Shown here one piece after another: positions 648 to 63,976 of a stretch of 64,000 nucleotides of DNA. The position numbers were made by a program, and so were the translations under genes. The stretch lies in the NCBI GenBank assembly GCA_036170235.1, contig JAVHOW010000017.1, forward strand, positions 4,143 through 68,142, given 5' to 3'. This stretch comes from Minisyncoccota bacterium. GTDB taxonomy: Bacteria > Patescibacteriota > Minisyncoccia > Phycocordibacterales > PALSA-1337. How positions within the stretch are numbered: the stretch's first letter is position 1; each line of letters opens with the position of its first letter. The notes below the pieces were generated by a model. The model was not told the DNA's origin. It saw only the letters and a program-made list of their open reading frames with translations, and ran no database searches.

Positions 648-684
648 ACATATAGTTTAACATCACCATAAAAGATTACATCTG

Positions 685-1000
685 TGGCGCCTCCCGCTCC
701 AACCGCCTTTTCCGGGCAGGTCGTGCGCGGCCGCTTGTACGAGAGCGCATGGTAGGAGTACGGGCGCGTACACCTCCGCCCTGATGGAGTATGTGGCGCT
801 CCTTACGCACACATCCGTATGTCTCCGCGCATTTCCCCAGTTGCTAATCGCAACAGGGGTGCGCTCTCGACATACCGATGTGTGCTAGTCGCGAATAGAT
901 TCCGTGGTAACGGGCTGAGGTCAACGCGCCCTTATCTGCCAAGCGTCTCGCGCACCACCTACCCTCCAAAGGCGGTAGAGGCGGTCGGCGAACAGGGGTA
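685..1000 (-). ncRNA. GC-rich, highly structured RNA candidate, class unresolved
   Basis: About two-thirds G+C (41/60 in 721-780 by my count) between AT-rich flanks. Segment 688-707 pairs with 971-990 (15 WC + 1 G-U of 20). Segment 714-729 pairs with 949-964 (14 WC + 1 G-U of 16). There is a nested hairpin at 817-875, and 740-749 is perfectly complementary to 860-869. Both wobble pairs are G-U only if the minus strand is the RNA. The ORFs here translate to Arg-rich nonsense. Confidence 0.45.
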
Positions 1001-1056
1001 TTCATAAATTGCTCATTTTGTTGTAGAATATCGTCATTAAGAAATAATATAAAATT

Positions 1057-1344
1057 ATGCCACAAATAATCTCACTGATCATTTTAGCGACAGCTATCTG
1101 GTATACGTTGAAAGTTAGGAAATCAGCTCGAGCAGGTCAAGCAATAGATAGTCTTGGGGAAGGAGAAAAGGTATATGTTTGGGTATCTTCGTTATTAAAC
1201 CCGGTCTTTTCTGGAGCCGCTTTTTATTATGGATGGAAGAAACTTCTACCACATAAGGCAAAACAAGCTAACGCTATCTCTCTTTGGGCGTTTTTGATCG
1301 AACTTGTATTGGGCGCCGCTCTGTTTTTTGCATTATCTCAATAA
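1057..1344 (+). CDS. small hydrophobic membrane protein, hypothetical
   Basis: 95-aa ORF with two or three hydrophobic segments (IISLIILATAIWY, LWAFLIELVLGAALFFAL). No family recognised. Confidence 0.5.
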   Translation: MPQIISLIILATAIWYTLKVRKSARAGQAIDSLGEGEKVYVWVSSLLNPVFSGAAFYYGWKKLLPHKAKQANAISLWAFLIELVLGAALFFALSQ

Positions 1345-4194: not shown

Positions 4195-4355
4195 TTAATT
4201 TCGTTCTAATATCGTCCCACAGCGCGCACAATTGATTTGTACCCCATAAAGTGGACACAGATTTCACAATTCATTGGTTTCTTTTGTTAGAATTATTAAA
4301 TTAACAAAAGAACAAACATGAGAACAACACTTTATTTTCGTGGTATAATGCACCC

Positions 4356-5330
4356 ATGAATACAAAAACCTCACCCAAAGACTTCTTCCTTCACCTTGGC
4401 GCGACAGTAGCGCTATATGTAGCCGCTGGCGCTCTTATCAATCTTTCGTTTAGCGTCATCAATTATTTTTTACCTGACGCGCTCGCGGGATATTTCTATG
4501 GCAATTCAGTCGCATGGCCGATTTCCATGCTGATTGTGCTTGTTCCAATACTTTATGTGCTGGAGTGGTTTATCAATCGAGATATCACTCGTATGCCAGA
4601 AAAAGCCGATCTTTGGATACGCAAGTGGAGAATATATTTGACACTATTCCTAGCGGTGGTTCTTTTTGGGGGTGACCTCATCGCACTGATCAATACCTAT
4701 TTGAATGGAGAAATCACGGCGCGATTTGTTTACAAAATCATCTTGATACTTTTTGTTGCGGGATCGATTGGTAAATATTATTTCTTCAGCATATACACAT
4801 CACATCGCTGGTCAAAATTTGCGCGTCGTGCCAACGCTTGGTTTGGTATCGTATTGGTCATTGCCGCTATTATCATCGGGTTTATTGCAGTTGGCTCGCC
4901 AGCAAAACAACGTGCATTGCGATTTGACAGCCAGCGCGTCAATGATTTGAGTAGCATTCAGTGGCAGGTGATCAATTATTGGCAACAAAAACAGAAGTTA
5001 CCAGTTGTCCTAACTGATCTCAACGACACTGTTTCTGGTTTTATTGTTCCAACCGATCCTGAGACTAAGGCAGCTTATCAATATTCGATTAAGCCTCTAG
5101 TAGGCAATCTCTCGTTTGAATTATGTGCAACATTTGGTGAAGTAGCACAAGATAATTTTGGAAGGGGAGCTTATAGTGGAGGAGGTATGTATCCGACAAA
5201 TATCTCTTACCCAAGTCCTGTTGGAGGAGTTTCAGATGTCTGGAATCATGATAAGGGTCGAGTTTGTTTTGATCGTGCTATAGATCCTGATAAGTATCCG
5301 GTGAATAGAGTTGTTCCGAAGGGCATCTAG
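4356..5330 (+). CDS. multi-pass membrane protein (DUF5671-like N-terminus), hypothetical
   Basis: N-terminus SPKDFFLHLGATVALYVAAGALINL plus 5-6 TM segments, then a soluble C-terminal domain. TGgTATAAT at 4341-4349 ends 6 nt before the ATG. Confidence 0.55.
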   Translation: MNTKTSPKDFFLHLGATVALYVAAGALINLSFSVINYFLPDALAGYFYGNSVAWPISMLIVLVPILYVLEWFINRDITRMPEKADLWIRKWRIYLTLFLAVVLFGGDLIALINTYLNGEITARFVYKIILILFVAGSIGKYYFFSIYTSHRWSKFARRANAWFGIVLVIAAIIIGFIAVGSPAKQRALRFDSQRVNDLSSIQWQVINYWQQKQKLPVVLTDLNDTVSGFIVPTDPETKAAYQYSIKPLVGNLSFELCATFGEVAQDNFGRGAYSGGGMYPTNISYPSPVGGVSDVWNHDKGRVCFDRAIDPDKYPVNRVVPKGI

Positions 5331-5337
5331 AGTAAAT

Positions 5338-5380
5338 CTTGCAATTTCGCGAGTGAGTCCCGCAGGTATTTAAAAAAACA
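5338..5380. repeat. solo half-copy of hairpin-element arm (matches reverse complement of 6889-6930)
   Basis: The first 33 aligned positions are 27/33 identical to the reverse complement of 6889-6930, followed by an A-run. It starts 8 nt after the stop of the 4356..5330 gene. Confidence 0.6.
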
Positions 5381-5449
5381 TGTCACCAAGGTTACCATTT
5401 TTATGCTACAATAACTTCTCATTTTAATCATAAAACATATAAATCATCC

Positions 5450-6865
5450 ATGAACCTCGGAAAGAAAACTAAGATTGTTTGTACTATCGGACCTGTTACT
5501 GAAAGCGAAGAAAAACTCACTGAACTCGTTAATGCTGGTATGAATGTTATGCGCCTCAACTTTTCGCATGGAGATTTTGCTGAACATCAGAAGCGTGTAG
5601 ACACTATTCGGGAAGTTATGAAAAAGACTGGCAAGACAGTCGCTATTCTTCAAGATCTTTGTGGTCCCAAAATTCGTATAGGTACATTTAAAGATAAAAT
5701 GATCATGTTGCATGAAGGTAAAAATTTCACCTTGACCACAGATGAGATCGAAGGTACAGAAGAAAAAGTACACGTGAATTATCCTGAACTTCCTCGTGAG
5801 GTTAAAAAAGGCAGTATTATCATGCTTCAAGATGGTACCAAGCGTCTCGAAGTACTTGAAGTCAAAGGCAATGACATTATAACCAAAGTTATGATTGGTG
5901 GACGTCTCTCTGGTCGTAAAGGCGTCAATGTCCCAGGTGCCAATCTATCACTTTCTGCTTTGACTGAAAAAGATCGTGCTGACGTTGTATTTGGTATACA
6001 AAATAATGTTGATTTCATAGCCCTTTCATTTGTTCGTCGTGCATCTGATATTACCGATCTTCGCAAAATTCTTGATGACGCAAAGTCTGGTGCCCACATT
6101 ATTGCAAAAATTGAAACACCAGAAGCACTCAATTGTATTGATGAAATCATAGTGGCAGCTGATGGTATCATGATTGCTCGTGGCGACCTAGCTATTGAGA
6201 TTCCAGCCGAAGAAGTTCCACTCGTGCAGAAACTCATTATTTCAAAATGTAACGCTATCGGTAAACCTGTCATTACCGCAACACAGATGTTGGAGTCTAT
6301 GATCAAAAATCCTGTTCCAACTCGCGCTGAAGTTTCAGATATCGCCAATGCCATTATTGATGGTACAGACGCTATTATGCTTTCTGAAGAAACTACTCTC
6401 GGCGATTTTCCGATTGATGCCGTCAAAGTTATGACTAAGGTTGCTTTGCGTGTAGAAAAAGAAGTCTACACTCGCGATACGATTGCTGAATACGATTCAT
6501 CGCACGGTATCACAGATGTCGTCTCCCAGTCAGCTGTTCGAGCCGCACACAATGTGGACGCCGCTCTTATTGTCGCACTGACTCGTTCAGGACGTTCTGC
6601 TCGGATGATTGCTCGTTATAGGCCCGCAGAACATATTTTGGCTTTGTCTGATAATCAAGCTCATGCAAGCAAGTTGATGTTGACTTTCGGTTGTTATCCT
6701 ATGGTTGCGCCAACCTTCAAAACAGTAGATGAGATTATGGAAATCGTGCGTAAAGTGACTCTCGATACAGAACTCGTTAAAAAAGGGGATAAGGTGGTGA
6801 TAGTCGCTGGTATGCCATTCGGCACTGCCGCAGAGACGAATATGATTTTGGTGGAGACGTTGTAG
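5450..6865 (+). CDS. pyk: pyruvate kinase
   Basis: 471 aa. N-terminus KTKIVCTIGPVTESEEKLTELVNAGMNVMRLNFSHGDFAEH, plus IIAKIETPEAL and MIARGDLAIEIP motifs typical of pyruvate kinase. Confidence 0.95.
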   Translation: MNLGKKTKIVCTIGPVTESEEKLTELVNAGMNVMRLNFSHGDFAEHQKRVDTIREVMKKTGKTVAILQDLCGPKIRIGTFKDKMIMLHEGKNFTLTTDEIEGTEEKVHVNYPELPREVKKGSIIMLQDGTKRLEVLEVKGNDIITKVMIGGRLSGRKGVNVPGANLSLSALTEKDRADVVFGIQNNVDFIALSFVRRASDITDLRKILDDAKSGAHIIAKIETPEALNCIDEIIVAADGIMIARGDLAIEIPAEEVPLVQKLIISKCNAIGKPVITATQMLESMIKNPVPTRAEVSDIANAIIDGTDAIMLSEETTLGDFPIDAVKVMTKVALRVEKEVYTRDTIAEYDSSHGITDVVSQSAVRAAHNVDAALIVALTRSGRSARMIARYRPAEHILALSDNQAHASKLMLTFGCYPMVAPTFKTVDEIMEIVRKVTLDTELVKKGDKVVIVAGMPFGTAAETNMILVETL

Positions 6866-6866: not shown

Positions 6867-7062
6867 AAAAATCAAGAACCACACACACGTGTTTTTTAAT
6901 ACCTGCGGGGCTTGCTCGTTAAATTACAAGGTATTTTGGCGTGGAGGGTCCATCGACACCAAAATACCTTGCAATTTATACTCGCTTCAGACATGTCCTC
7001 AATGAGCACATTGACCTACTGGGTCGGTATTAAAAAACACGTGTGTGTGGTTCTTGATTTTT
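6867..7062. repeat. long hairpin element, copy C (37-bp perfect outer inverted repeat + structured core)
   Basis: 6867-6903 is the perfect reverse complement of 7026-7062. An inner stem pairs 6921-6939 with 6959-6977 (19 bp, one mismatch). The core carries the motif tgtctgaagcgagta on the minus strand. The element starts 1 nt after the pyk stop. Confidence 0.85.
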
Positions 7063-7102
7063 TATTTGCAATTCTATTAAATTTTCATGTTATAATATCT
7101 CA

Positions 7103-8265: not shown

Positions 8266-9702
8266 ATGACACAACGCGACTATTTCAAAGGCAAACGCAT
8301 TGCGGTGATTGGTCTCGGCGCGCGTGGAGAAATGGTCGAAGACGTGAAATATCTCATCAAAGCCGGCGCGTGGGTCTCTATTTATGACCTGAAAAGCGAG
8401 GCGCGTCTCAAGAACCACCTCGTATTCTTGCGTTCTGTCGGTTTGGCAAATTATGTTTGCGGTTCTATTCCAGCCGAGGATTTGCTCGATATGGATTTGA
8501 TTATCTTATCACATGAATATCCGCGCGACTCGTCATTCCTGAAATCGGTGCATACGCAAAATAGTGAAATCAATATAGAAGGAAAGAGTGATAAAGAAAA
8601 AGTCATTGAAAATTCGGGCATGACAAACTCGGATGGTGAAAAAACTATTGAACGAGCTGAAAAAGATTATCAGAAAAAAATTCCGATTGAATACCCCGAA
8701 ACACTTTTTTTCAAATTGGCGCCACCGGTGACTTTGGTTGGGGTTATGGGTATTTGTGGCAAATCAACTGTTATATCTATTCTGACTCCATTACTTGATG
8801 ACGTTTGTGAAAAATACGAAACGCAGGGATTGTTTGTGGTAGACCCTGAATCCGCGGATGGCGTATTGGTACATCTTAAGAAAATAAAAAGCGGCGACAT
8901 TGTACTCATGCGTATTGTAGATCACATATTGCAAGAAATGAGCACGTTGCGCATCAGTCCACACGTTGCCATCTTCACGACTATTCCTCCAAAAAATTCA
9001 TACACAACATCGCCATTTGAAATTTTGGCGTATCAGACGTATAACAATTTCATTATCGCATCTGATGAAGTGATTGACGCGACTCGTCTCTCGAAGTTTC
9101 AGCCACGCGCCAAAATGTTGCGTACCAAAGCATCGCTTATTCCGGCTGATTGGGGTTTTCTTGGACGTGGTCCGCATGATTATTCCAATGCAGCTTTGGC
9201 TCTCCAGGCGGCAAAATTATTCAAAGTAGATAACGATATTGCTAGGCATATTTTGGGGAACTGGAAAGCCTTGAAAGGTAGATTGGAATTGGTCAAAAAA
9301 GTTAAAAATATAGAATTTTATAATGATACGATGTCGATGACACCTGATGCGACGCTGGCTGGAATTACCGCATTATCGGAAGGTAGAAATGTCATCTTGA
9401 TTTTTGGTGGCTCCGAAGTCGGATATGAATATAATAAATTATACGCGGAATTATCTCGCTACGTGCATACGGTCATAAGTATTCCGGGAAGTGGCACTAT
9501 TCGTCAACGCCTTTCATTGCAGGAGATCGAAGGTCTAACGGTTTATTCCAAATCATCAATCGAAGAAGCGGTTCGGACGGCTTTTGAACATGCGCAAAAA
9601 GGGGATCGGGTTCTTTTTAGTCCGGGTTTTGATGCTGGTGGAGTAGATGGTTCGAAGATCGAGCGTGGTGAGAAATTTGTGAAAGCGGTTAAGGGGTTGT
9701 AG
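8266..9702 (+). CDS. murD: UDP-N-acetylmuramoylalanine--D-glutamate ligase (MurD-like Mur ligase) with ~55-aa insertion
   Basis: N-terminal Rossmann motif KRIAVIGLGARG, P-loop-like VGVMGICGKSTV, and Mur ligase C-terminal features. An AT-rich Lys/Glu-rich insertion lies around aa 95-150. Confidence 0.72.
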   Translation: MTQRDYFKGKRIAVIGLGARGEMVEDVKYLIKAGAWVSIYDLKSEARLKNHLVFLRSVGLANYVCGSIPAEDLLDMDLIILSHEYPRDSSFLKSVHTQNSEINIEGKSDKEKVIENSGMTNSDGEKTIERAEKDYQKKIPIEYPETLFFKLAPPVTLVGVMGICGKSTVISILTPLLDDVCEKYETQGLFVVDPESADGVLVHLKKIKSGDIVLMRIVDHILQEMSTLRISPHVAIFTTIPPKNSYTTSPFEILAYQTYNNFIIASDEVIDATRLSKFQPRAKMLRTKASLIPADWGFLGRGPHDYSNAALALQAAKLFKVDNDIARHILGNWKALKGRLELVKKVKNIEFYNDTMSMTPDATLAGITALSEGRNVILIFGGSEVGYEYNKLYAELSRYVHTVISIPGSGTIRQRLSLQEIEGLTVYSKSSIEEAVRTAFEHAQKGDRVLFSPGFDAGGVDGSKIERGEKFVKAVKGL

Positions 9703-13974: not shown

Positions 13975-15105
13975 TTAATGTAACGCCAACCAGAACCCAA
14001 ATACCACGAAAATAAAATGCACGACCCAGAAACGCATGACGGTTTTTTCTTCGGTCCAACCTTTGAGCTCAAAGTGGTGGTGTAGAGGTGCCATTTTAAA
14101 TATTTTACGGCCGAGGGTGTAACGAGAAATGACTTGGATTACGACTGAAAATGCTTCGATATAGAACATGAAACCAATAAATAAAAGGGAAATAGTCTCA
14201 CCAATTGCCATAGCGTTGACTGCTAGAAGCGCGCCAAGTCCTAGACTGCCGACGTCACCCATCATGAAGCGGGCTGGTTTTATATTGAAATAAGTATAGG
14301 CTACGAGTGCTCCAATAGTGGTAGCATTCAAAATTGCAATCTCACCAAAACCATTTATCCATGAAAGGATAGTCAGTGCACTGAATGTTGTGATAAGCAT
14401 ACCTCCAGCTAAACCATCCATACCATCAGCGATGTTGACGGCATTGGCAGTGAACATAACTATAAAAATAATAACAGGAACAATGATCCAGCCGAGATCA
14501 AAACCATTGGTAATAAATGGAATATAAATGTAATGCCAAGCAGGTCCTAGTTTGGTAAAAATCCACCAGGCGGCAATGGCTCCAGCGACAAATTGTAGGA
14601 TGAGTTTTTCATGAACAAATACACCTTTGCTTGTTCGTGAACCGAACCAAACTGACAGACGTTTGAAAGCACTCCATGGAAAAGTGATAGTGTACCAGAG
14701 GCGCATTTTCCAATCTTTGTGAATACGGATGAGGTTCATAATATGACCGAGTTTACGTGAGCGACGTTCAGCGCCATAAATGTTCATGAGGTCATCGATT
14801 GCACCCAAAGCTGCTGATATGATCATGACGCCTATTGGTACGTAAGTGAACGAACGATTCCAATTAAAAAAATAAGTGATTACTGCAACTGTGATAACAA
14901 CAAGTAGTCCACCCATGACTGGAGTGGTGGCTTTGTAAGCGTGTGAACCAAGAGTTGCTAGTTCTGTTTTGGCGCCTTTTATGATGTTAAATCGGTACAG
15001 AAAACGTATAAGTAATGGTGCCCAAATATAGGCGACAACAGCGCCTGCAAGGGCAAAACCAAGGATATAGGAGAGGTCGGCGGTACCTTCTAGGATGGTT
15101 ATCAT
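13975..15105 (-). CDS. mraY: phospho-N-acetylmuramoyl-pentapeptide transferase
   Basis: 376 aa, 10 TM-like segments. Motifs NAVNIADGMDGLAGG, GDVGSLGLGALLA and APLHHHFE. Confidence 0.93.
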   Translation of the reverse strand: MITILEGTADLSYILGFALAGAVVAYIWAPLLIRFLYRFNIIKGAKTELATLGSHAYKATTPVMGGLLVVITVAVITYFFNWNRSFTYVPIGVMIISAALGAIDDLMNIYGAERRSRKLGHIMNLIRIHKDWKMRLWYTITFPWSAFKRLSVWFGSRTSKGVFVHEKLILQFVAGAIAAWWIFTKLGPAWHYIYIPFITNGFDLGWIIVPVIIFIVMFTANAVNIADGMDGLAGGMLITTFSALTILSWINGFGEIAILNATTIGALVAYTYFNIKPARFMMGDVGSLGLGALLAVNAMAIGETISLLFIGFMFYIEAFSVVIQVISRYTLGRKIFKMAPLHHHFELKGWTEEKTVMRFWVVHFIFVVFGFWLALH

Positions 15106-15151: not shown

Positions 15152-15328
15152 ATGTAAGAGCTGAACGACACCTATTTTTTTTGTTGTCTCGAAAACTCGC
15201 AACGTACACCTACCTCAAAATTTTTACACCTTTATTCAAAGTCCGTGGCGATTCCAATTTTGAGTCCGGTGTTACTCGCTCAAACAGTTCAAGACAACAA
15301 AAAAATAGGTGTCGTTTCGCTCTTACAT
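15152..15328. repeat. long hairpin element, copy B (37-38-bp near-perfect outer inverted repeat + conserved core)
   Basis: 15152-15189 pairs with 15292-15328 (two mismatches, T8 versus T7). The reverse complement of the core 15190-15291 aligns with the copy A core, sharing TGAACTGTyTGAGCGAGTAACAC...ACTCAAAATTGGAATC...AATTTTGAG...GTGTACGTTGmGAGTTTTC. Confidence 0.85.
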
Positions 15329-16099
15329 CCACTTCAATTTCCTCAACTCTGTCTTCGATTTTCCGGCACGCACAAAGATACGATTGGTGTCAGCTTGTTT
15401 GTCGTTTTCGGTCCAAACTTGTTCGGTGATGGGTTTGTTGATGTTGGTGATTTCAATAGTGCCTTGTATCACACCAGTGCCATATACACCATCTTCTGGA
15501 TAAGCGACTGCGTGGGAATAATGAATCTTGTATGGAATGAAATTTTGGTATTCGACTTGGTGAATGACGAGGATGTGGTCACGATCGTATTCTGCACTTT
15601 CGCCTACCATCGTAATGATATCTCCAGGCACAATTTCTTTTATCGAAATGGCACGACTATTTTTGTCATTGGTGAGAGTCGAGACATCACAGTTTTCAAT
15701 CGGGCGCAGAGAACAACGGATTTTACCAACAAGTCCGTGGCAATTAACAAATGATATATGTTTGTCGATCGAGCCCTTACCCAACTCTTCGCTTTCCACG
15801 TTGAGTATGTAATATGCGTATGCGGAACAATCGATGCCGAGGTTATTATCCGTGAGTATTTTTTTTAGTGATTCATCGGAAATTGACCCGACAGCTACAT
15901 GAGCTTTTACAAAAAGTGTCTGTACTTCATCAAAAATATCTTTTGGACTACCTTTGCCGCTACTCACACGCAAAGTAGCGCGCGCCTTGACGGTTTTATT
16001 ATTGAAATAGGGAACCGAGCATACGGCATTACCAACCTTGAAATGCAGGTATTGGTCGATGACATTGAGTGCGCGGTTAGAGAGGGTTTTGGTGTTCAT
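15323..16099 (-). CDS. hypothetical protein, possible NlpC/P60-like Cys-His hydrolase
   Basis: GIDCSAYAYYIL followed later by DRDHILVIHQV is compatible with a papain-like Cys...His arrangement. This is weak. Confidence 0.35.
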   Translation of the reverse strand: MNTKTLSNRALNVIDQYLHFKVGNAVCSVPYFNNKTVKARATLRVSSGKGSPKDIFDEVQTLFVKAHVAVGSISDESLKKILTDNNLGIDCSAYAYYILNVESEELGKGSIDKHISFVNCHGLVGKIRCSLRPIENCDVSTLTNDKNSRAISIKEIVPGDIITMVGESAEYDRDHILVIHQVEYQNFIPYKIHYSHAVAYPEDGVYGTGVIQGTIEITNINKPITEQVWTENDKQADTNRIFVRAGKSKTELRKLKWM

Positions 16100-16315: not shown

Positions 16316-16972
16316 ATGAGCAACAAGGCATCATTAACAAACACGGAACTGGAAGTCACACAAAAAATGCAGACGCATTTTCCACGCGGCTTGGATACGA
16401 AAGTGCTCGGAGCCGTCAACAGTTGCCCAGTGGAAAATCTCACCGCGGCGCTTATGGAGATGGTGGATAAATTGGCGAGCGGTGCGAAAGCCAAAGTCAG
16501 CAAACTCCTCGAATTGGTGACGTCGGTGAAAGTTGCTGCCGTCAAGGAGTTCATCGCCGCCGACAAATTCAAAGCTGGTGAAACAGTTGATGGGGTGAAG
16601 TATTACTCCTCATTCGGCGGCAACTTCATCAAGCACTTCCTGTCCAAGGTTGAGAGAGATGTGGCAGCGACGGATCTTCGGGTCCACAAACTGCTGTGTA
16701 ATTCCAAAGACCTTGGCATCCGCACAGGGATTGGTGAGGACAATGAAGAGACCAGCCTCGCGCACCTTCAGCAGTGCTTGAAGCGTCAGGGTAACGGTGA
16801 AAAAGGTGATCTCCTGATCAATGGTTGGGCGAACATCTTCTACATCCGTGACATGGACGGCAACCTCTGGGCCGTGCGCGCGTACTGGTGCGGCGTTGGT
16901 TGGTGCCTCAGTGCCGACTCCGTCGAGGACCCGGATGGTTGGAGTGCTGGCGACCAGGTCTTCTCCCGCTGA
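16316..16972 (+). CDS. DGR variable protein (target 1), C-terminal VR
   Basis: 218 aa. The last 35 codons are VR1. Paralogous to 19021..19614 (shared ...NIFYIR...GNLWAV...W...GW.L.A.SVE.P..W.AG.QVFSR). No signal peptide or TM seen. Confidence 0.85.
   Translation: MSNKASLTNTELEVTQKMQTHFPRGLDTKVLGAVNSCPVENLTAALMEMVDKLASGAKAKVSKLLELVTSVKVAAVKEFIAADKFKAGETVDGVKYYSSFGGNFIKHFLSKVERDVAATDLRVHKLLCNSKDLGIRTGIGEDNEETSLAHLQQCLKRQGNGEKGDLLINGWANIFYIRDMDGNLWAVRAYWCGVGWCLSADSVEDPDGWSAGDQVFSR
16865..16970 (+). repeat. DGR variable repeat VR1
   Basis: 106 nt aligned to TR 17304-17409 without gaps. There are 15 differences, all at TR adenines. Confidence 0.9.
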
Positions 16973-17066: not shown

Positions 17067-17069
17067 TTT

Positions 17070-17409: not shown

Positions 17410-17421
17410 ATTCATTTTTTT

Positions 17422-19020: not shown

Positions 19021-19614
19021 ATGAGCAAAAACAAGTACAATGACATAAATAACGGTCAAAACTTCGCCATATACACCAAACTCGGTGGACCCGAGGGCGT
19101 GAAAAGGTTCTTGGCAGGTGAACTGATTATGCGGAAACCGTCGCCTAATCGCCGACTCAAGTCCGTGGATGCGGTCGAATGCCCGAGGATCGAACGTTTC
19201 GAAGCAAAGGACAACTTCGGCAAAGGTGTGGTCAACGGAGTGAAGTTTTATGATTTCAACGAGAATTTCAAAAAACTTTTCATTCCAAAAGTCGAGACTG
19301 ACGTTGCTGAGACGATTCTCCAATCCCACCAACTCCTTCGGAATTCGAATGATCTGGGCATTCTCAAGGAGATCGAGGATGGCAAGGAAATCACAAACCT
19401 AGCGCATCTTCATTACGCACTCACACTCCAAGGTGATGGTCGGGGTGGTGTACTACTGGTTAACGGATATGCAAACATCTTCTACATCCGCGGTACTGAT
19501 GGTAACCTCTGGGCCGTGTTCGCGGACTGGTGCGACGATGGTTGGAGCCTCAATGCCCACTCCGTCGAGTACCCGGATGTTTGGAATGCTGGCAGCCAGG
19601 TCTTCTCCCGCTGA
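19021..19614 (+). CDS. DGR variable protein (target 2), C-terminal VR
   Basis: 197 aa paralog of target 1, ending ...NLWAVFADWCDDGWSLNAHSVEYPDVWNAGSQVFSR. Confidence 0.85.
   Translation: MSKNKYNDINNGQNFAIYTKLGGPEGVKRFLAGELIMRKPSPNRRLKSVDAVECPRIERFEAKDNFGKGVVNGVKFYDFNENFKKLFIPKVETDVAETILQSHQLLRNSNDLGILKEIEDGKEITNLAHLHYALTLQGDGRGGVLLVNGYANIFYIRGTDGNLWAVFADWCDDGWSLNAHSVEYPDVWNAGSQVFSR
19507..19612 (+). repeat. DGR variable repeat VR2
   Basis: 106 nt aligned to the TR without gaps. There are 10 differences, all at TR adenines. Confidence 0.9.
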
Positions 19615-21985: not shown

Positions 21986-22699
21986 ATGTCTATATTCTCA
22001 ATTGTTGCTACACCTATTGGAAACCTCGAAGACATCACGCTTCGAGCTTTGAAAACGCTTTCCGCCGCTGATATCATTCTCTGCGAAGATACGCGTGTGA
22101 CCAAAAAGTTACTCGATCGTCATGGAATTAAAAAATCAACCCTGTCTTATCATGCGCACAGCAAACTTTCGCGTGTTGATGAAATTATTTCGTATTTGAA
22201 AGAAGGAAAAAATTTGGCATTAGTTTCTGACGCAGGCACTCCTGGAATTTCTGATCCGGGATCTGAATTGATGAAAAAGATTCGTAAAGAATTAGAAAAT
22301 GAAATCAGAAGTGGCGAAGTAAAGATTGAAACTATTCCTGGTCCTTCAGCGCTTACTTCCGCGCTTTCTATAGCTGGTGTACCATGCGCTGATTTTGTTT
22401 TTCTTGGATTTTTACCACACAAAAAGGGCAGAGAAACTTTGTTCAAAGAAATTGCCAATTCGGAGCGCACAATGATTTTCTATGAATCACCGCATCGGAT
22501 TATGAAATCATTGGAAAGTTTGGAAGAACATTTGAATGACATATCAGATGCCAAGCCACCGCGGAAAGTCACAGTCTGTCGTGAATTGACGAAGATATTT
22601 GAAGAAGTTGTGCAGGGTACTGCCAAGGAAGTTAAGAATTATTTTGAGGAACATGCCGATAAAGTTAGAGGGGAGTTTGTGGTGATTGTTAGTAGTTAA
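21986..22699 (+). CDS. rsmI: 16S rRNA (cytidine1402-2'-O)-methyltransferase
   Basis: SIVATPIGNLEDITLRALKTLSAADIILCEDTR, LVSDAGTPGISDPG and FYESPHR motifs. Confidence 0.9.
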   Translation: MSIFSIVATPIGNLEDITLRALKTLSAADIILCEDTRVTKKLLDRHGIKKSTLSYHAHSKLSRVDEIISYLKEGKNLALVSDAGTPGISDPGSELMKKIRKELENEIRSGEVKIETIPGPSALTSALSIAGVPCADFVFLGFLPHKKGRETLFKEIANSERTMIFYESPHRIMKSLESLEEHLNDISDAKPPRKVTVCRELTKIFEEVVQGTAKEVKNYFEEHADKVRGEFVVIVSS

Positions 22700-22864
22700 G
22701 AGTTGGCAAGCGTGAGGATGTGTATTTGCACGTATTGAACTGTCTGAGCGAGTAACACGTAACTCAAAATTGGAATCACCACCGTAGCCACGTAAAATTT
22801 TGAGTGGAGTGTACGTTGAGAGTTTTCAAGACGCGCAAATACACATCCTCACGCTTGCCAACTC
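22700..22864. repeat. long hairpin element, copy A (30-bp perfect outer inverted repeat + conserved core)
   Basis: 22700-22729 is the perfect reverse complement of 22835-22864. The core 22735-22830 contains TGAACTGTCTGAGCGAGTAACAC, the stem ACTCAAAATT/AATTTTGAGT and GTGTACGTTGAGAGTTTTCA. The element starts 1 nt after the rsmI stop. Confidence 0.88.
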
Positions 22865-22907
22865 GTAATAAAAGAGCCGCGCAAATCAGTGAAGAGATGG
22901 CGGCTTG

Positions 22908-24935: not shown

Positions 24936-24967
24936 AGTTTCTTTTTGTGGTACACTTATATCTGAAT

Positions 24968-27001
24968 ATGGCTATAGTCCCTACAGATGAAAATCGCATA
25001 ACTTATTTCGCTGAAACAGATGCCCGCAACAAGCGAGTTAAATTTGGCATCAAAGCGAAAGATCGCGCCAAGCACGTCTACGTGATTGGTAAAACTGGCA
25101 TGGGAAAATCTACCATGCTGGAAAATATGGCAGTACAAGATATTCAGAACGGTGAAGGTATGTGCTTCATTGATCCGCACGGAAAAACCGCTGATTTACT
25201 TTTGGAATATGTACCCAAAGAACGTATTCGTGATGTGATATACATCGCGCCATTTGACGTTGAGTATCCGATTTCATTTAACGTTATGGAAAGTGTCGAT
25301 CCAGCCAAGCGGCACCTTGTGGTTTCAGGTCTGATGAGTACCTTCAAAAAGATTTGGGTTGATGCTTGGTCGGCGCGTATGGAATATATTTTGACAAATA
25401 CTTTGTTAGCTTTGCTTGAAGCACCTGGAACAACTTTGCTTGGAGTTAACAGAATGTTGTCTGACAAAGAATATCGCAAAGAAATCGTTTCGCATGTGCA
25501 AGATCCATCAGTCAAAGCTTTTTGGGTCAAAGAATTCGCTAGCTATACTGAACGTCAAGCCGCTGAAGCTGTGCCGGCAATTCAAAACAAAGTCGGTCAA
25601 TTCACCGCCAATCCACTGATTCGCAACATGATCGGTCAGCCAGTATCGTCATTCGATTTTCGTCAGGCTATGGATAGTCGCAAGATTATCATCATCAACT
25701 TATCAAAAGGAAGAATCGGTGACGAGAATATGAAATTGCTCGGTGGACTTTTGGTGACCAAAATATATTTGGCGGCAATGTCGCGCGCTGATGTGCCAGA
25801 TCGGGTTATGAAGATGTTACCGAACTTTTATTTATTTGTTGATGAATTCCAAAACTTTGCCAACGCTTCGTTTGCCGATATTCTTTCTGAAGCTCGAAAG
25901 TATAAATTGAACTTGACGATAGCGCACCAGTATATAGAACAAATGGATGAGATCGTTCGTCCGGCAGTCTTCGGTAACGTTGGCACGATGATAGCGTTTC
26001 GCGTTGGCGCCACTGATGCCGAAGCATTGGAACAAGAATTCGCGCCAGTGTTCGTAATTGAAGATTTGGTGAATTTGGGCGCGTATCAAATTTATTTAAA
26101 ATTGATGATAGATGGTTTGAGCTCGACGCCATTTTCAGCGAAAACGATTGACGCTATACCACACCCAGATACTTCATACATGAATGAGATTATTGCGGCA
26201 TCTCGTGAACAATTCTCTCGACCACGAGCGGAGGTTGAAGCGCTGGTCATCAAGTTCCATGAACCAACGGTTCCAGTGAAGAAGGTTGTTGCGCCTGTGG
26301 TCACGGTTCCGCCAGTTGTACCAATTACGACTCCAAAATCAACGACTCCCGGCTCCGCAAATGTAGGTTTGAGAGACACGCAGTCGTCCTCGCCTGCAAT
26401 TACGAAACCAGCAGGCGAGGACGCTACTAGTTCTCGTCGCCGCCTTAATGGGTTAGATAAACAACAACTCCGCGGCGGTTCCGAAATGTCTCCAAAACCT
26501 CCACTTGCTTCACTGGAGAGTCGTACTCCTTTACCTGTGGCGATCAAACCCAAACCTCCTTCTTCAGTAGAATTAAAAATTACACCAGCGCCGATTCAAA
26601 AAAACGCACCCCCAGTCCAACCATCTGTTCAACCATCTGTCCAAATAAAACCAGTATCACTAGCCTCGCTTTCTCCAAGTATTACGACTGCCAGACAAGA
26701 CCCGAAAGTTCCTTCAGCAAAGAATGTAAATGATTTGAAGAATGCCTTGACGGCGGCTTTGAATAAGTCAAAAGTTGAAACTAAATCTTCAATACCAGCT
26801 CAATCTTCACAACCAATTAAAATGCCAACTGAAGACGGTTTTCAGCCACTAACTTCTTTGAAAAACCTGAAACCAATTCAGAAAATTCAGTCATCACAGT
26901 CGCCAATTACTCCCGCACCAATTCAAAACAGCCAAAATGTTCCAATAAAGCCAGCAGAAGTTCCAGAAGATGTTCTCAAGAAGGTATTGAAAGTAGACTA
27001 A
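24968..27001 (+). CDS. VirD4/TraG/TraD-like P-loop ATPase (type IV coupling-protein-like) with Pro/Ser/Thr-rich tail
   Basis: HVYVIGKTGMGKSTMLENM (Walker A), FYLFVDEFQNF (Walker B) and TIAHQY. The last ~240 aa are low-complexity (PVQPSVQPSVQ...). Confidence 0.6.
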   Translation: MAIVPTDENRITYFAETDARNKRVKFGIKAKDRAKHVYVIGKTGMGKSTMLENMAVQDIQNGEGMCFIDPHGKTADLLLEYVPKERIRDVIYIAPFDVEYPISFNVMESVDPAKRHLVVSGLMSTFKKIWVDAWSARMEYILTNTLLALLEAPGTTLLGVNRMLSDKEYRKEIVSHVQDPSVKAFWVKEFASYTERQAAEAVPAIQNKVGQFTANPLIRNMIGQPVSSFDFRQAMDSRKIIIINLSKGRIGDENMKLLGGLLVTKIYLAAMSRADVPDRVMKMLPNFYLFVDEFQNFANASFADILSEARKYKLNLTIAHQYIEQMDEIVRPAVFGNVGTMIAFRVGATDAEALEQEFAPVFVIEDLVNLGAYQIYLKLMIDGLSSTPFSAKTIDAIPHPDTSYMNEIIAASREQFSRPRAEVEALVIKFHEPTVPVKKVVAPVVTVPPVVPITTPKSTTPGSANVGLRDTQSSSPAITKPAGEDATSSRRRLNGLDKQQLRGGSEMSPKPPLASLESRTPLPVAIKPKPPSSVELKITPAPIQKNAPPVQPSVQPSVQIKPVSLASLSPSITTARQDPKVPSAKNVNDLKNALTAALNKSKVETKSSIPAQSSQPIKMPTEDGFQPLTSLKNLKPIQKIQSSQSPITPAPIQNSQNVPIKPAEVPEDVLKKVLKVD

Positions 27002-27021
27002 GAATGTGGAAGTATGGAGGT

Positions 27022-28239
27022 ATGAACAAATCTCGCCGTGTCCTAATATTTTCATTGGTGTATTACCCTCGCTTTATCGGCGGGGCAGAGGTTGCTGTTA
27101 AAGAAATTACTGACCGTATTTCAGAAAAGGAAATTGAATTTGATATGGTGACCTTGCGTCTAGATGCGCGTCTGCCAAAATTTGAACGCATTGGCAATGT
27201 GAATGTGTATAGAGTTGGTTGGGCAAATCCAAGGTCGGACCTTGGACAAGTTTCTCTGGCAGATTCATTACCGCGGTATTTGCATCTAAATAAATACGCG
27301 TATTTGGTAACAGGATTTTTTAAAGCTCTATCACTTCAGCGTGTTCGAAAATACGATGCGACTTGGTCACTCATGGCGACCTACAATTCATTCGCGGCAC
27401 TTTTTTTCAAGTTGACTCATCCGAAAATTCCGTTTATTTTCACTCTCCAAGATGGCGATCCGATCGCGTATCTCAAACATCGGGCTCTGCCATTGTACCC
27501 ATTATTCAAAATGATTTTTACGCGAGCGGATCATATCCAAGCTATTTCAACATATTTGGCAGACTGGGCGCGTGATATGGGTGCGAAGTGTCCAGTTACA
27601 GTTGTACCGAACGCGGTTGATGTAGATTTATTTTCTCAAGATTTATCAATCGGTGAAGCGTCAGAACTCAAGCGTACATTAGGTAAAAAAGAGGGCGATG
27701 TCTTCTTAATCACAACTTCAAGATTGGTGACCAAAAACGCGGTCGGGGATATTATTTCAGCTCTTACTTATTTACCGCCGAATATTAAGTTGATTATTCT
27801 CGGTCAAGGATATCAGGAGGAAGATCTTAAAGCTCAAAGTGTTCAACTTAAACTCATGGGTCAATCAAATGCTGAAGACCGAGTGAAATTTTTGGGTCAT
27901 ATTCCACACGAAGACATGCCACCATATTTGCACATTTCTGAAATTTTTATTCGCCCGTCACTTTCAGAAGGTTTGGGTAATTCATTCTTGGAAGCGATGG
28001 CGGCTGGTATTCCAGTTATTGCCACGCCAGTCGGTGGTATTCCAGATTTTCTTGTTGATGGAGAGACTGGTTTATTTTGTGAAGTAAATAATCCGCACAG
28101 TATTGCGCAAAAAGTTGAGAAATTAATCAAGGATAAGGAGTCGCGGGAGTATATCGTCAGAAATGCGAAGAAGATGGTTGAGGAAAAATATAGTTGGGGA
28201 AGGGTGGTTGGGGAGATGAGGGAGATATTTGTGAGGTGA
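27022..28239 (+). CDS. glycosyltransferase family 4 (GT-B)
   Basis: PSLSEGLGNSFLEAMAAGIPVIATPVGGIPDFLVDGETG (E-x7-E type motif). Confidence 0.85.
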   Translation: MNKSRRVLIFSLVYYPRFIGGAEVAVKEITDRISEKEIEFDMVTLRLDARLPKFERIGNVNVYRVGWANPRSDLGQVSLADSLPRYLHLNKYAYLVTGFFKALSLQRVRKYDATWSLMATYNSFAALFFKLTHPKIPFIFTLQDGDPIAYLKHRALPLYPLFKMIFTRADHIQAISTYLADWARDMGAKCPVTVVPNAVDVDLFSQDLSIGEASELKRTLGKKEGDVFLITTSRLVTKNAVGDIISALTYLPPNIKLIILGQGYQEEDLKAQSVQLKLMGQSNAEDRVKFLGHIPHEDMPPYLHISEIFIRPSLSEGLGNSFLEAMAAGIPVIATPVGGIPDFLVDGETGLFCEVNNPHSIAQKVEKLIKDKESREYIVRNAKKMVEEKYSWGRVVGEMREIFVR

Positions 28240-28372
28240 GGTACGACACATGGCACAAAACACGGGATTCGGATACACGGATATTTTTCTGGTGAAAAAT
28301 TCCTATGCTCGGGCTCATCGCCCTCCGCAGTGTATCCTCACCCGTGTTTTGTGTCATGTGTCGTACCTCACC
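28235..28372. repeat. long hairpin element, copy D (32-bp outer inverted repeat with one G-T; core only loosely related)
   Basis: 28235-28266 pairs with 28341-28372. Inner stems are ggatacac/gtgtatcc and atttttc/gaaaaat. The minus strand carries tgagcccgagcata, resembling the TGAGCGAGTA motif. The left arm overlaps the stop codon at 28237-28239. Confidence 0.7.
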
Positions 28373-61171: not shown

Positions 61172-61225
61172 TTTTCATATCAGGGTTTTTTTATTAACTA
61201 AAATGTGTTAAAGTGCCCTCTACAT

Positions 61226-63976
61226 ATGGCATTTTTGACCAAACTATTCAACCGTTCGAACACCAAGAATGTGAAGGAATTCGAGCCTTTTGTGGCACAA
61301 ATTAACGCTTTTGAGGCGGCGATGAAGGCATTGTCGGATGTGGAATTGAGGGCTAAAACTGATGAATTTAAGGCAAAAATAAAGGAGTATGATGAACGTA
61401 ATAAAAAACCCGAAACTCGAAATCCCGATCGAGCACGATCGCCACTGGGTCAATCCGAGACAAATTCCAAATCAGAAATTCAAAATTCAAAAAAGGCGCA
61501 ACACCCAGTATTGGATGAAATTATGCCAGAAGCTTTTGCCGTTGTTCGTGAAGCATCACGTCGCACACTTGGTCAACGTCACTTTGATGTACAACTTCTT
61601 GGAGGCATGGTTTTGAATTCTGGAGCAATTGCCGAGATGCGCACTGGTGAAGGAAAAACTTTGGTTGCGACACTTCCCGCATATTTAAATGCGCTTACAG
61701 GTAAAGGTGTTCACATTGTGACCGTTAACGATTACCTCTCACGTCGTGACGCAGTCTGGATGGGTCAAATTTACGCATTCCTCGGATTGTCGGTTGCAGT
61801 AATAAACAATGAGGCGAGTTTTGTGTATGATTCGATGCATCGAAGTGACGCGGACGGTACCGCAACTGTTCCTCAGGACACGCCGTCAACCTCTGGTGAG
61901 GTTGCGGCTGGTTCTCCTTCGCCTTCGCTCAGTCCGAAGCGTCCTTCGGATTCAGTTGCGGTACCGTCCGCTAACAACGACCCGCTCGACAAAGAACGCG
62001 ACCAACTTGGTGCTTTTAAAGTTGTTCACGAATTCCTCCGACCAGTCACACGCAGGGAAGCCTATGCCGCTGACATTACTTATGGAACAAACAATGAATT
62101 TGGTTTTGATTATCTTCGTGACAACCTCGAATACAGCCCAGACAAATTACGTCAGCGTGAACCGAACTATGCCATCGTTGATGAAATAGATTCTATTCTC
62201 ATTGATGAGGCGCGCACGCCGCTGATCATTTCCGCACCGATGCGTGATGCCGAATCGACCTACAAACAGTTCGCCTCGATGGTTCGGGCATTTAAAAAAG
62301 ATGAAGATTATACAGTTGAAGAAAAGCATCGCTCGATTTCTTTGACCTCAGACGGTATTACCAAAGCTGAAAAAATTCTTGGTATCGACAATATTTATAC
62401 TGACAAAGGCATCAAGTCTGTGCACCATTTGGAAACTGCCATCAAGGCGCAAGCTTTGTATCACAATGACAAGGAGTATGTCGTTAAGGATGGTCAGATT
62501 GTCATTGTTGATGAATTCACAGGTCGCATGCAACCAGGTCGTCGTTGGTCAGATGGTTTGCATCAAGCTATTGAGGCAAAGGAGGGTGTTGGTATTCAGC
62601 AAGAATCTCGCACCTATGCCTCGATCACATTTCAAAACTTTTTCCGAATGTATCCAAAATTAGCAGGTATGACTGGTACTGCCGCTACGTCAGCGGAGGA
62701 ATTTTTCAAAGTTTATGGTTTGGAAGTCGCTGTTGTTCCAACAAATGTCCAACCGATTCGTCTTGATCGCAATGATCAAATTTTTCAGACCGAGCTCGGT
62801 AAATTCAAAGCTATCGCACGTAAAGTCAAAGAATTGCATGCCAAAGGTCAGCCAGTCCTTATCGGTACAGTTTCTATTGAAAAGAATGAACTTCTGTCAC
62901 AATTTTTGAAATCCGAAGGCGTTCCACATCAGATGTTGAATGCCAAAAACCACGAACGTGAAGGTGAGATCATCGCGCAGGCCGGTAAGAAAGGTGGAGT
63001 TACTATAGCCACGAACATGGCTGGTCGCGGCGTGGACATCAAGCTCGGTGGTAATCCGAATACTCCGGAATTATATGAACAAATAAAGTCAGCTGGTGGT
63101 CTGTTCGTGCTCGGAACTGAACGTCATGAAGCACGCCGTATCGACAATCAGCTTCGTGGTCGTTCTGGTCGTCAAGGAGATCCTGGCGAAACTCAATTTT
63201 TCGTATCTCTTGAAGATACATTGATGCGTGTCTTTGCGTCTGATATGTTGAAGTCGATGATGGGTAAACTTGGCGTGGCTGATGATGAACCGATAGAGCA
63301 CAAACTTATTTCAAAGTCATTGGAGAGCGCGCAGGAAAAGATTGAGGGATTCAACTTCGATTCACGCAAACATGTTTTGGAATTTGATGACATCATCAAT
63401 ACGCAGAGGAAGAATATTTACGGACGGCGCAGGAGGTTGCTGTTGGGGACGGTTGATGATGTGGAGGGTGAATTGATGAATATCGTCGGAGTTGGTTCTG
63501 CGGAGCCAGAACAAGCTTTGGTATCAATCATCGACAAAAAAATCGCGGAATTTGGTCGCGAGAATTTCCTCAATGCGGTACGCATTGTCCTATTACAAGC
63601 TATAGACATGTATTGGGTGGAACACCTCGAAGTCATGGATTACACACGTTCCAGCGTCAATTTGCGCGCATACGGTCAACGTGATCCGTTAGTTGAATAC
63701 AAAAAGGAAGGATTGCGTCTATTCAAAGAAATGCAGGTCGCCATGCGTGCGCAGGTAGTCAAAGTTTTGCCTCATGTAGTCCCGATGATGAATGGCACAG
63801 CGGTCGCTCCTGAACAAAAGAACCTAAAAGAAGTTCATGAAAATGCGCAAATTATCGGCGCAGGTGATGGTTCCAGTGGCAACTCTGATGGAATTAAAAA
63901 GGAGCCAGAAGTTGGCAGAAATGACCTCTGTCCTTGCGGTTCAGGCAAGAAGTACAAGAAGTGTCATGGGAAATAA
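61226..63976 (+). CDS. secA: preprotein translocase ATPase SecA, with two lineage-specific insertions
   Basis: MPEAFAVVREASRRTLGQRHFDVQLLGG, MRTGEGKTLVATLPAYLNALTGKGVHIVTVNDYL, DEIDSILIDEARTPLII, TNMAGRGVDI and the C-terminal CPCGSGKKYKKCHGK. Insertions lie at about aa 55-95 and aa 210-275. Confidence 0.95.
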   Translation: MAFLTKLFNRSNTKNVKEFEPFVAQINAFEAAMKALSDVELRAKTDEFKAKIKEYDERNKKPETRNPDRARSPLGQSETNSKSEIQNSKKAQHPVLDEIMPEAFAVVREASRRTLGQRHFDVQLLGGMVLNSGAIAEMRTGEGKTLVATLPAYLNALTGKGVHIVTVNDYLSRRDAVWMGQIYAFLGLSVAVINNEASFVYDSMHRSDADGTATVPQDTPSTSGEVAAGSPSPSLSPKRPSDSVAVPSANNDPLDKERDQLGAFKVVHEFLRPVTRREAYAADITYGTNNEFGFDYLRDNLEYSPDKLRQREPNYAIVDEIDSILIDEARTPLIISAPMRDAESTYKQFASMVRAFKKDEDYTVEEKHRSISLTSDGITKAEKILGIDNIYTDKGIKSVHHLETAIKAQALYHNDKEYVVKDGQIVIVDEFTGRMQPGRRWSDGLHQAIEAKEGVGIQQESRTYASITFQNFFRMYPKLAGMTGTAATSAEEFFKVYGLEVAVVPTNVQPIRLDRNDQIFQTELGKFKAIARKVKELHAKGQPVLIGTVSIEKNELLSQFLKSEGVPHQMLNAKNHEREGEIIAQAGKKGGVTIATNMAGRGVDIKLGGNPNTPELYEQIKSAGGLFVLGTERHEARRIDNQLRGRSGRQGDPGETQFFVSLEDTLMRVFASDMLKSMMGKLGVADDEPIEHKLISKSLESAQEKIEGFNFDSRKHVLEFDDIINTQRKNIYGRRRRLLLGTVDDVEGELMNIVGVGSAEPEQALVSIIDKKIAEFGRENFLNAVRIVLLQAIDMYWVEHLEVMDYTRSSVNLRAYGQRDPLVEYKKEGLRLFKEMQVAMRAQVVKVLPHVVPMMNGTAVAPEQKNLKEVHENAQIIGAGDGSSGNSDGIKKEPEVGRNDLCPCGSGKKYKKCHGK
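61850..61971. repeat. GC-rich palindromic element embedded in the secA coding sequence
   Basis: gcggacggtaccgcaactg (61850-61868) is the perfect reverse complement of 61953-61971. The interior has its own hairpin tccgaag/cttcgga. It is translated as a Pro/Ser/Thr-rich segment absent from canonical SecA. Confidence 0.75.

Follow-up and report, generated by a model that had tools for sequence, protein, structure and literature searches.

Bacterial genomes harbor several classes of dispersed palindromic repeat, among them repetitive extragenic palindromic (REP) sequences and the REPINs built from them, Rickettsia palindromic elements (RPEs), and MITEs (miniature transposable elements with inverted repeats). 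The element considered here is a long hairpin, copy C, between pyk and radC in a 64,000-nt stretch of a Minisyncoccota genome (assembly GCA_036170235.1, contig JAVHOW010000017.1, positions 4,143 to 68,142; hereafter the window). The host, a groundwater bacterium, belongs to the Paceibacteria, within the Candidate Phyla Radiation, and the protein encoded by its pyk shares 89% identity with that of Candidatus Taylorbacteria RIFCSPHIGHO2_12_FULL_45_16. Genomes of this radiation are tiny, compact and thought to be poor in selfish DNA, and dispersed palindromic repeats have not been described for them within the literature we searched. We read C as a dispersed, noncoding, nested-palindrome DNA repeat of the REP/REPIN, RPE or MITE kind, whose complementarity would be kept at the DNA level and which was possibly co-opted as a terminator of pyk; we give this reading a probability of about 0.5.

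The likeness to REPs and REPINs is considerable. At the core of both lies a short conserved imperfect palindrome (about 20-40 nt in REPs, a 19-mer here), larger hairpins are made from inverted units, the sites are intergenic and often at gene ends, there are many copies per genome, and co-option by the host as terminator or mRNA stabilizer is known for REPs. However, there is no GTAG at the block boundaries here, the 19-mer is common to several phyla whereas REPs are species-specific, and the outer arms are locus-specific and lie outside the repeated unit. Copies also occur in frame within open reading frames (ORFs), and no RAYT transposase was found near the copies (2.2 Mb of Paceibacteria loci searched, the 64-kb window included). 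RPEs, with which we compared the hairpins by description, are likewise palindromic repeats of 100-200 nt that occur both between genes and in frame in essential genes (here secA and topA); their in-frame copies are translated as peptide inserts, and their mobilization mechanism is likewise unknown. RPE family copies, however, align over their full length, whereas here only the core blocks do, and the host phylum differs. MITEs (Neisseria Correia/NEMIS, ERIC, RUP) are, like our hairpins, small, nonautonomous, hairpin-forming and placed at gene boundaries, with possible roles as terminators or RNase III targets and with presence/absence polymorphism between relatives, but they have conserved terminal inverted repeats and are flanked by direct target-site duplications, whereas the termini here are unique to each copy and no such duplication is visible.

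Three further systems bear on particular features. Template switching at quasipalindromes would explain perfect arms without a G·T bias, concerted change of two arms, and an arm copied from host sequence in one related locus (L090); it is known from E. coli and phage reporter assays, not as a described genome-wide generator of 30-55 bp arms, and for our hairpins it is a candidate process. The center of the 19-mer is exactly GCGAAGC, and the Paceibacteria insert lies in its GAA loop; the known examples of the d(GCGAAGC) hairpin, to which we liken it by sequence, are isolated hairpins at replication origins or promoters, not dispersed ones. As in an intrinsic terminator, C stands directly past a stop codon, with a T-tract on the sense strand and the promoter of the next gene after it, but it is 196 nt long, branched and has 37-bp arms, and other copies (A, B and D) have no T-tract. 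Integron attC sites are a poor match: the element ends lack R''/R' cores (RYYYAAC … GTTRRRY), and the neighbors are housekeeping genes, at 6-8 kb spacing, with no integrase seen. A retron msr/msd is likewise not indicated, the only reverse transcriptase lying 2.4-11 kb from the copies and being of the type found in diversity-generating retroelements (DGRs), not an adjacent retron enzyme; nor is a DGR target hairpin, as C follows pyk and no template-like repeat is present there. The element is distinct from every defined family tested, without shared terminal repeats, target-site duplications, GTAG or an Rfam match.

Anatomy and kinship of copy C

A perfect 37-bp outer inverted repeat starting 1 nt past the pyk stop had been proposed in a preliminary description of this DNA, and both its coordinates and its pairing are borne out. 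The pyk ORF (5450..6865) ends with TAG at 6863-6865, C begins 1 nt past this stop, and its arms at 6867-6903 and 7026-7062 are complementary at 37 of 37 positions, with 122 nt between them. The whole hairpin spans 196 nt and has a branched internal structure. Relatives were sought in related Paceibacteria loci (about 2.2 Mb: 80 genome loci around pyk and 80 metagenome loci around ORF 24947..27001); L-numbers designate loci or contigs compared with the window, and a suffix gives the position in the locus. Long hairpins (loop of at least 20 nt; n=51) were catalogued and compared all-against-all. The parts of C are as follows.

6867..6903, no strand assigned: outer arm on the pyk side, AAAAATCAAGAACCACACACACGTGTTTTTTAATACC, with internal palindrome CACACGTGTG; 37/37 complementary to 7026-7062
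6904..6919, minus strand: family 3' block, ACGAGCAAGCCCCGCA(G); diverged right half of the motif plus CCGCAG
6920..6939, minus strand: inner stem, 3' arm, CCAAAATACCTTGTAATTTA
6940..6958, minus strand: apical loop of 19 nt, TGTCGATGGACCCTCCACG; other members are not conserved here
6959..6978, minus strand: inner stem, 5' arm, TAAATTGCAAGGTATTTTGG; its base TAAATTGC also in L084_3757, L119_9288 and L119_12982
6979..7000, minus strand: family 5' block, GAGGACATGTCTGAAGCGAGTA; left half of the 19-mer plus GAGGAC; 26/28 identity to L084_3757, with L119_9288 similar
7001..7025, minus strand: 25 extra nt specific to C, GACCCAGTAGGTCAATGTGCTCATT; two mini-hairpins between outer arm and 5' block
7026..7062, no strand assigned: outer arm on the radC side; on the plus strand it runs into the T-tract 7058-7067, TTTTTTATTT

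The inner arms form a 20-bp stem whose sole mismatch is 6926A·6972C on the plus strand, a G·U on the minus strand. The apical loop has the 19 nt described earlier, but its CCACG end is not conserved in B or other members. Twelve hairpins carry YGCAG at the point where the outer arm joins.

A minus-strand motif, TGTCTGAAGCGAGTA, had been taken to tie C to two other hairpins of the window, A and B. It is present in C at 6979-6993, but with up to three mismatches it is not enriched in the window (three matches; at least three in 13 of 100 shuffles). Moreover, the cores of A and B are clearly homologous to each other (z about 30), whereas the pairwise comparison of C with A is not significant (score 22, null mean 16.9, z=2.1), and C taken by itself shows no significant similarity to either A or B. 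These figures are what one would expect if C were unrelated to A and B and shared a 15-mer and a hairpin shape with them by coincidence in AT-rich intergenic DNA. Copies from other genomes speak otherwise. C links to L084_3757 (z=8.4) and L119_9288 (z=7.5), and these two link in turn to A and B (z=4.7-5.4) and also to L119_12982, L119_3646 and L092_3033. When the two bridging copies were used as queries over the 64-kb window, C on the minus strand ranked first of the 2554 windows scored for both of them, the match to the bridging copies being 26/28 (GAGGAC-TGTTTGAA-CGACTATAAATTGC versus GAGGACATGTCTGAAGCGAGTATAAATTGC). A profile hidden Markov model (HMM) of the family, trained solely on members outside the window, returned A and B as its top two window matches (E=0.004 and 0.008). 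The order of the blocks and their position relative to the stems are the same in C as in other members, and a truncated paralogue of C, which we call C', lies nearby. Thus, although the motif count taken by itself shows no enrichment, the bridging copies and the HMM speak against coincidence, and we regard that explanation as effectively refuted, with a very small residual probability. Family membership is solid because of the bridging copies: judged by its sequence, C is a true member of a family with A and B, in the orientations A(+), B(-) and C(-). Further diverged copies, which the preliminary description considered worth seeking, occur in L084, L119 and L092, and C' is a truncated one.

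The window has four long hairpins besides C, namely A, B, D and E, with outer arms that differ in each. These and C' are located as follows.

22696..22868, plus strand: copy A; HMM from non-window members, E=0.004; the methylase stop TAA (22697-22699) lies inside its outer arm
15152..15328, minus strand: copy B; HMM E=0.008; its arm includes the final codon and the stop of ORF 15323..16099(-)
5326..5383, plus strand: C', truncated paralogue; score 47 versus a null of 16.1±2.2; 37/46 identical to C(-); top non-self match in the window
28235..28372, plus strand: hairpin D, family 2; ends …CTCCGCAG; its arm includes the stop TGA of ORF 27004..28239
61850..61971, plus strand: hairpin E; 19-bp perfect arms, in frame in the secA ORF 61205..63976; z about 12 to L009_12437

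C' retains the 3' half of a copy resembling C (…CTTGCAATTTCGCGAGTGAGTCCCGCAGG), together with about 18 nt of outer arm (GTATTTAAAAAAACATGT), and stands on the far side of pyk from C, in opposite orientation, just past the stop of ORF 4356..5330. Hairpin E carries a motif-like GGACTGAGCGAAGGCGAAGG on its minus strand. The relatives of D include L004_8592 (8592-8708), L095_4307 (4307-4427) and L122_13530 (13530-13643), with z=13.7-23.9. This family 2 has a TGSTG loop and a GC hairpin with compensatory differences among members; its GC hairpin resembles E. coli 23S rRNA 2346-2369 (22/23 identical, z=6.7), probably by coincidence.

A 19-nt motif split at its apex

A family-1 copy is built in layers. 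Outermost is a locus-specific, near-perfect stem of 28-44 bp; within it stand a 5' block, GAGGAC-TGTCTGAGCGA-(C/G)TA, and a 3' block, A(A/C)G-GAGCGAGTT-CCGCAG, and between these an inner hairpin that is unrelated from one subgroup to another (TAAATTGC… in C, L084 and two L119 copies; ACAC…ACTCAAAATT in A and B; GAAACAGACC… in L092; CATTC… in L119_3646). Similarity between copies falls off outward from the core, and in the A, B, C, L084, L119 and L092 copies the outer arms have no sequence in common except in the 10-18 nt next to the core. The two blocks are the halves of one 19-mer, TGTCTGAGCGA|AGCGAGTT. This 19-mer, TGTCTGAGCGAAGCGAGTT, with closing pairs of the GGAC/GTTCC type, is split in all family-1 copies and occurs unsplit elsewhere. 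A viral contig (L164) has it unsplit with the same GAGGAC…CCGCAG flanks, and L166 and L027 have it with a 9-nt insert, L027 at the same intergenic site as B. At the apex of the 19-mer, L164 and Ralstonia have no module, L166 and L027 have one of 9 nt, and the Paceibacteria copies have one of 20-60 bp; in these last copies the inner hairpin sits exactly in the GAA loop of GCGAAGC.

Covariation was counted on a hand-anchored mini-alignment (A5) of the seven basal pairs of the inner stem, which was used instead of MAFFT whole-core alignments, as these were not structure-consistent. In A5, 89% of cells pair, all seven pairs change on both sides, and none of 500 shuffles equaled the observed score. 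The preliminary description had held that the apical stem of C was replaced in sequence while its pairing was kept. For the inner stem this is real, subject to the anchoring bias of A5; it does not, however, reflect compensatory drift of one helix. Since the blocks are halves of one 19-mer, the replaced stem of C is a palindromic module that varies among copies and occupies the apex of a conserved motif; it did not arise by drift of one ancestral helix.

GCGAAGC is a hyperstable DNA mini-hairpin, known from the phage phiX174/G4 origins. We infer that the center of the 19-mer forms this mini-hairpin and that the flanking GA/AG positions can form tandem sheared G·A pairs. The exact unsplit 19-mer has 18 matches in IMG/VR, against about 0.3 expected by our own estimate. 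In Ralstonia it is found, unannotated, at three to five places per record in 130 plasmid records. On the megaplasmid of Ralstonia pseudosolanacearum GMI1000 (L250, 302.9 kb; positions 1455-1590), for example, TGTCTGAGCGAAGCGAGTT tips a nested hairpin with 22-bp and 8-bp stems between convergent ORFs. Unsplit copies lie at stem tips or close to them, the stems being unrelated in sequence, and the sites are mostly intergenic and at gene ends. The motif appears to be previously undescribed: it has no Rfam match, and literature searches (hairpins of the Candidate Phyla Radiation, the translated repeat, the motif string) returned nothing relevant, the 19-mer string being in no paper found. That an identical 19-nt hairpin-tip motif occurs in Paceibacteria, Ralstonia and diverse phage contigs is the least explained of our results. 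Such sharing implies either a very widespread recognition system or the horizontal spread of a minimal element, and the fixed sequence of the 19-mer offers a concrete handle for finding the enzyme responsible.

One speculative account, which we hold to be unlikely, takes the module itself as the mobile entity. A unit of 19-31 nt, (GAGGAC)TGTCTGAGCGAAGCGAGTT(CCGCAG), would be a tiny cross-phylum mobile hairpin that enters or nucleates at single-stranded hairpin tips (terminators, other copies, genic sites); in Paceibacteria, fold-back or template-switch events particular to that lineage would then grow palindromes inward at its apex and outward by copying the flank, giving "Russian-doll" hairpins of 100-200 nt de novo at gene ends, driven by an enzyme acting on single-stranded DNA (ssDNA) or by a polymerase activity. 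If true, selfish DNA would here be propagating, and terminators arising, in a new way.

Other searches for the blocks gave little. An nhmmer model of the 3' block was too weak and had no matches, while that of the 5' block missed C owing to two 1-nt insertions in C. A fuzzy motif search of the 80 pyk loci returned noise only, and 15-mer and 17-mer scans of viral contigs gave mostly chance-level matches, L164 and L166 excepted. In E. coli genomes the motif matched at chance level only, inside a restriction-modification gene, and the exact gapped pattern of the A/B core (TGAGCGAGTAAC…GTGTACGTTG) had no match in JGI metagenomes. Rfam 15 covariance models gave no match at the gathering threshold over the whole window; in E-value mode on A, window 600-1100, L166 and L164 they returned nothing real, with miRNA-like long-hairpin noise for A, L166 and L164.

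How the complementarity is kept

Of the pairs in the outer stems of the 51 hairpins, 1291 are Watson-Crick, 14 are G·T, 17 are A·C and 26 are mismatches of other kinds, and the stems are 97-98% Watson-Crick. In family 1 the motif strand has 13 G·U pairs and the opposite strand 11. The mismatch in the inner stem of C had been noted as a G-U on the minus-strand transcript alone; this is correct for the single pair 6926A·6972C, but it carries no strand signal, the direction of one transition being a 50:50 matter. The arms of C are 37/37 complementary while C' has diverged from C to 37/46 over the shared stretch, which suggests a concerted change of the two arms.

Orientation is mixed as well. The motif is sense to the abutting gene in A, B, L084_3757 and L119_3646, and antisense in C, L119_9288, L119_12982 and L092_3033. 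Some related elements, moreover, are translated. Hairpin E is read in frame in secA with the ORF intact, and homologues have either no insert or different hairpins at the same codon. The secA insert of L162 (10574-10741) is a doublet, "VIPAKAGIQ…LDSRLRGND", with 27-bp perfect arms (GTCATTCCCGCGAAGGCGGGAATCCAG) and two inverted mini-palindrome copies, and in the secA hairpin of L163 (891-1046) each arm forms its own, separately compensated mini-hairpin. In L164 (9694-10503, minus strand), a viral contig of 56% GC, the exact 19-mer is in frame (…GEDCLSEASSAA…) in an insert of about 58 aa in a type IA topoisomerase (topA). Because the stems are Watson-Crick without wobble bias, the arms appear to change in concert, orientation is mixed and some copies are in frame, we favor maintenance of the palindromes at the DNA level. 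The preliminary description had argued for selection on structure at the RNA or ssDNA level; the lack of wobble bias, the mixed orientation and the in-frame copies count against the RNA part of this proposal, while an ssDNA hairpin is compatible with them.

An RNA-level explanation deserves consideration nonetheless. C might be a structured RNA under selection, either a cis-acting 3'-UTR hairpin (terminator, RNase III site or stabilizer) or a small RNA processed out of a long stem, with the 19-mer as a protein-binding internal loop resembling a K-turn or loop E, with tandem G·A pairs. The folds are indeed very strong: C as RNA on the minus strand has z=-14.2 relative to shuffles, its two strands as DNA have z=-13.0 and -14.8, and both strands, as RNA or DNA, fold far better than shuffles (z=-13 to -15). 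Conserved unpaired blocks stand between covarying helices, the motif strand folds better in seven of eight members, copies lie exactly at gene ends and between convergent genes (L007_6660, L122_13530), a T-tract follows C on the pyk sense strand, and in L030 a tRNA-Ile sits on a 21-bp flanking stem. On the other side are the copies antisense to the abutting gene, C among them, and a pairing pattern (97-98% Watson-Crick, G·T about as frequent as A·C) unlike that of RNA helices under selection. Also contrary to this explanation, A, B and D have no T-tracts, the translated in-frame copies in secA and topA are hard to reconcile with excision or processing, Rfam holds no match, and the inner stem can be missing entirely. 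We therefore consider selection on an RNA improbable. On inspection by eye, hammerhead, twister and attC motifs were absent. A small peptide was also considered and rejected, as an ATG-initiated ORF of 31 codons is present in the core of C only and other members have none.

The reading that we prefer, a DNA repeat, can be given a mechanism. The elements would spread and be remodeled at the DNA level, and complementarity would be created and kept by hairpin-templated processes rather than by stepwise compensatory substitution under RNA selection. Two candidate processes can be proposed: palindromes could be inserted at hairpin tips, and fold-back or template-switch copying could perfect and lengthen the arms, at times copying flanking host DNA. 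The left arm of the hairpin at L090 13188-13276 holds conserved codons of the upstream gene; as this arm is conserved coding sequence, the right arm must be the inverted copy of host sequence, and it is from this arm copied from its flank that we infer fold-back extension. A settled copy such as C may then serve the host as an orientation-independent hairpin, terminating pyk or protecting its 3' end.

Several observations weigh against this reading. The motif strand has the lower folding energy in seven of eight members, which keeps a role for the single strand, RNA or ssDNA, open, and the strict conservation of unpaired nucleotides in the 19-mer would equally fit a sequence-specific RNA or ssDNA ligand. 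Anchoring A5 on the helix biases that alignment toward pairing. Fold-back extension has one clear case, L090. Full-length arms are not shared by any two copies, which leaves the unit of mobility undefined, and no direct repeat of at least 3 nt, as expected of a target-site duplication, flanks C (TTGTAGG / TATTTGC), A (GTTAGTAG / TAAAAGAG) or B (TTATTCTAA / CCACTTCAA). Among the ORFs at 1-28 kb of the window and in the 2.2 Mb searched for Y1 transposases, no transposase, recombinase or nuclease could be tied to the hairpins, and L082, the nearest sister genome, is without a hairpin of loop at least 20 nt in the roughly 40 kb sampled.

There is a further alternative, in which the hairpins are substrates of a dedicated ssDNA enzyme encoded elsewhere, be it a Y1/HUH transposase of the IS200/IS605-RAYT type, as for true REPs and REPINs, or a reverse transcriptase, and in which the 19-mer is its recognition hairpin. 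The 19-mer is short, imperfect, hyperstable and conserved across phyla, as a protein recognition site would be, and the doublet and nested hairpins are REPIN-like, the two inverted mini-palindromes in the secA insert of L162 being a case in point. An IS200-type tnpA does exist in the clade, and the window encodes a reverse transcriptase. However, in a tblastn search with IS200 TnpA and RAYT queries, this tnpA (L082 2671-3129, 152 aa, E=5e-22) was the only one in 2.2 Mb including the 64-kb window, and no Y1 transposase was found in the window or the hairpin-rich loci. It has end hairpins of its own (region 2533-3262) from which the motif is absent, and its genome is the very sister in which the long hairpins were not found. 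The reverse transcriptase (17782-18840, plus strand) is part of a canonical DGR spanning 16316-19614, with its own template repeat (17301-17409) and two variable repeats (16862-16970 and 19504-19612) that show adenine-specific differences, and no GTAG-type REP signature is present. A dedicated enzyme of this kind thus appears doubtful. The tnpA of L082 sits in a variable region corresponding to the retroelement island of the window.

Placement, turnover and neighboring genes

Many hairpins lie at the 3' ends of genes: 21 of the 51 end within ±8 nt of a stop codon (ORFs of at least 120 aa), and 7 further ones reach 15 nt or more into the 3' end of an ORF. Their turnover at a given site, which favors a selfish palindromic element over an RNA under selection, is evident from the comparison of relatives. 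The 3' site of pyk has C in the window, unrelated hairpins in L009, L012 and L015, and is empty (about 25-35 nt) in L007, L010 and L013. The B site, the gap between ORFs 15323..16099 and 13975..15105, is occupied by family 1 in the window, L084 and L119, by family 2 in L095 and L089, by other hairpins in L009, L090, L096 and L099, and by a tRNA in L002, and measures only 15-60 nt in about 20 genomes. At the D site, L119 has a family-1 copy and L090 another hairpin. Copy A stands between the methylase stop and an ancestral bidirectional terminator; this terminator is intact beside A, and the whole hairpin, arms included, is therefore extra DNA. Nested, locus-specific perfect arms make these hairpins a natural system for studying how long palindromes arise and stay perfect, and the family as a whole one for the ways in which mobile hairpins turn into terminators or into peptide inserts of essential proteins.

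A role for C in the expression of pyk is suggested by what follows it. The T-tract at 7058-7067 (TTTTTTATTT) lies on the pyk sense strand, with the -10 box of radC just downstream, and because of this arrangement C could plausibly act as a giant intrinsic terminator or as a 3'-end protector of pyk. The outermost part of its arm, CTTGATTTTT(T/G)ATT, together with the T-run matches a small hairpin at the same site in L022. No such tract follows A, B or D. A scan with the intrinsic-terminator consensus, which requires a loop of 3-8 nt, did not call C, a hairpin too large for it.

The only other contig with this exact pyk (L001; Logan contig SRR25490533_1213640) ends 31 nt past the gene, inside C. 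This suggests that such palindromes break short-read assemblies, which matters for the reconstruction of genomes from metagenomes.

In more distant relatives (L018-L021), the pyk-radC spacer contains repeated TTATCCACAG(A/T)GTTATGAAATTTTGATAAAATTTT, which is DnaA-box-like; this spacer may be an origin-proximal region.

Upstream, window 680-1000 is a GC-rich segment, about 320 nt long, whose predicted structure is extreme (-110 kcal/mol per 220 nt) and which has no Rfam match. In relatives, tRNA-Leu and tRNA-Ile lie 3-5 kb upstream of pyk, at roughly this position, whereas a tRNA scan of the window found neither a tRNA nor a tRNA-like core. In L030 (852-995) the tRNA-Ile stands atop a 21-bp perfect inverted-repeat stem, and both L030 and L038 (about 526-700) have a second copy of the tRNA's 3' half about 70 nt downstream, resembling the scar of an att site.

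The ORFs at 1-28 kb of the window are housekeeping genes together with an MNT/HepT pair, a TraG-like ATPase and the one reverse transcriptase. ORFs 16316..16972 and 19021..19614 have the variable repeats of the DGR as their 3' ends, and conservation continues for about 65 nt downstream of both repeats. The MNT/HepT pair (19734-20584) is a nucleotidyltransferase-ribonuclease toxin-antitoxin system, and the ATPase (24947-27001) resembles TraG/VirD4 coupling proteins and lies amid cell-envelope genes.

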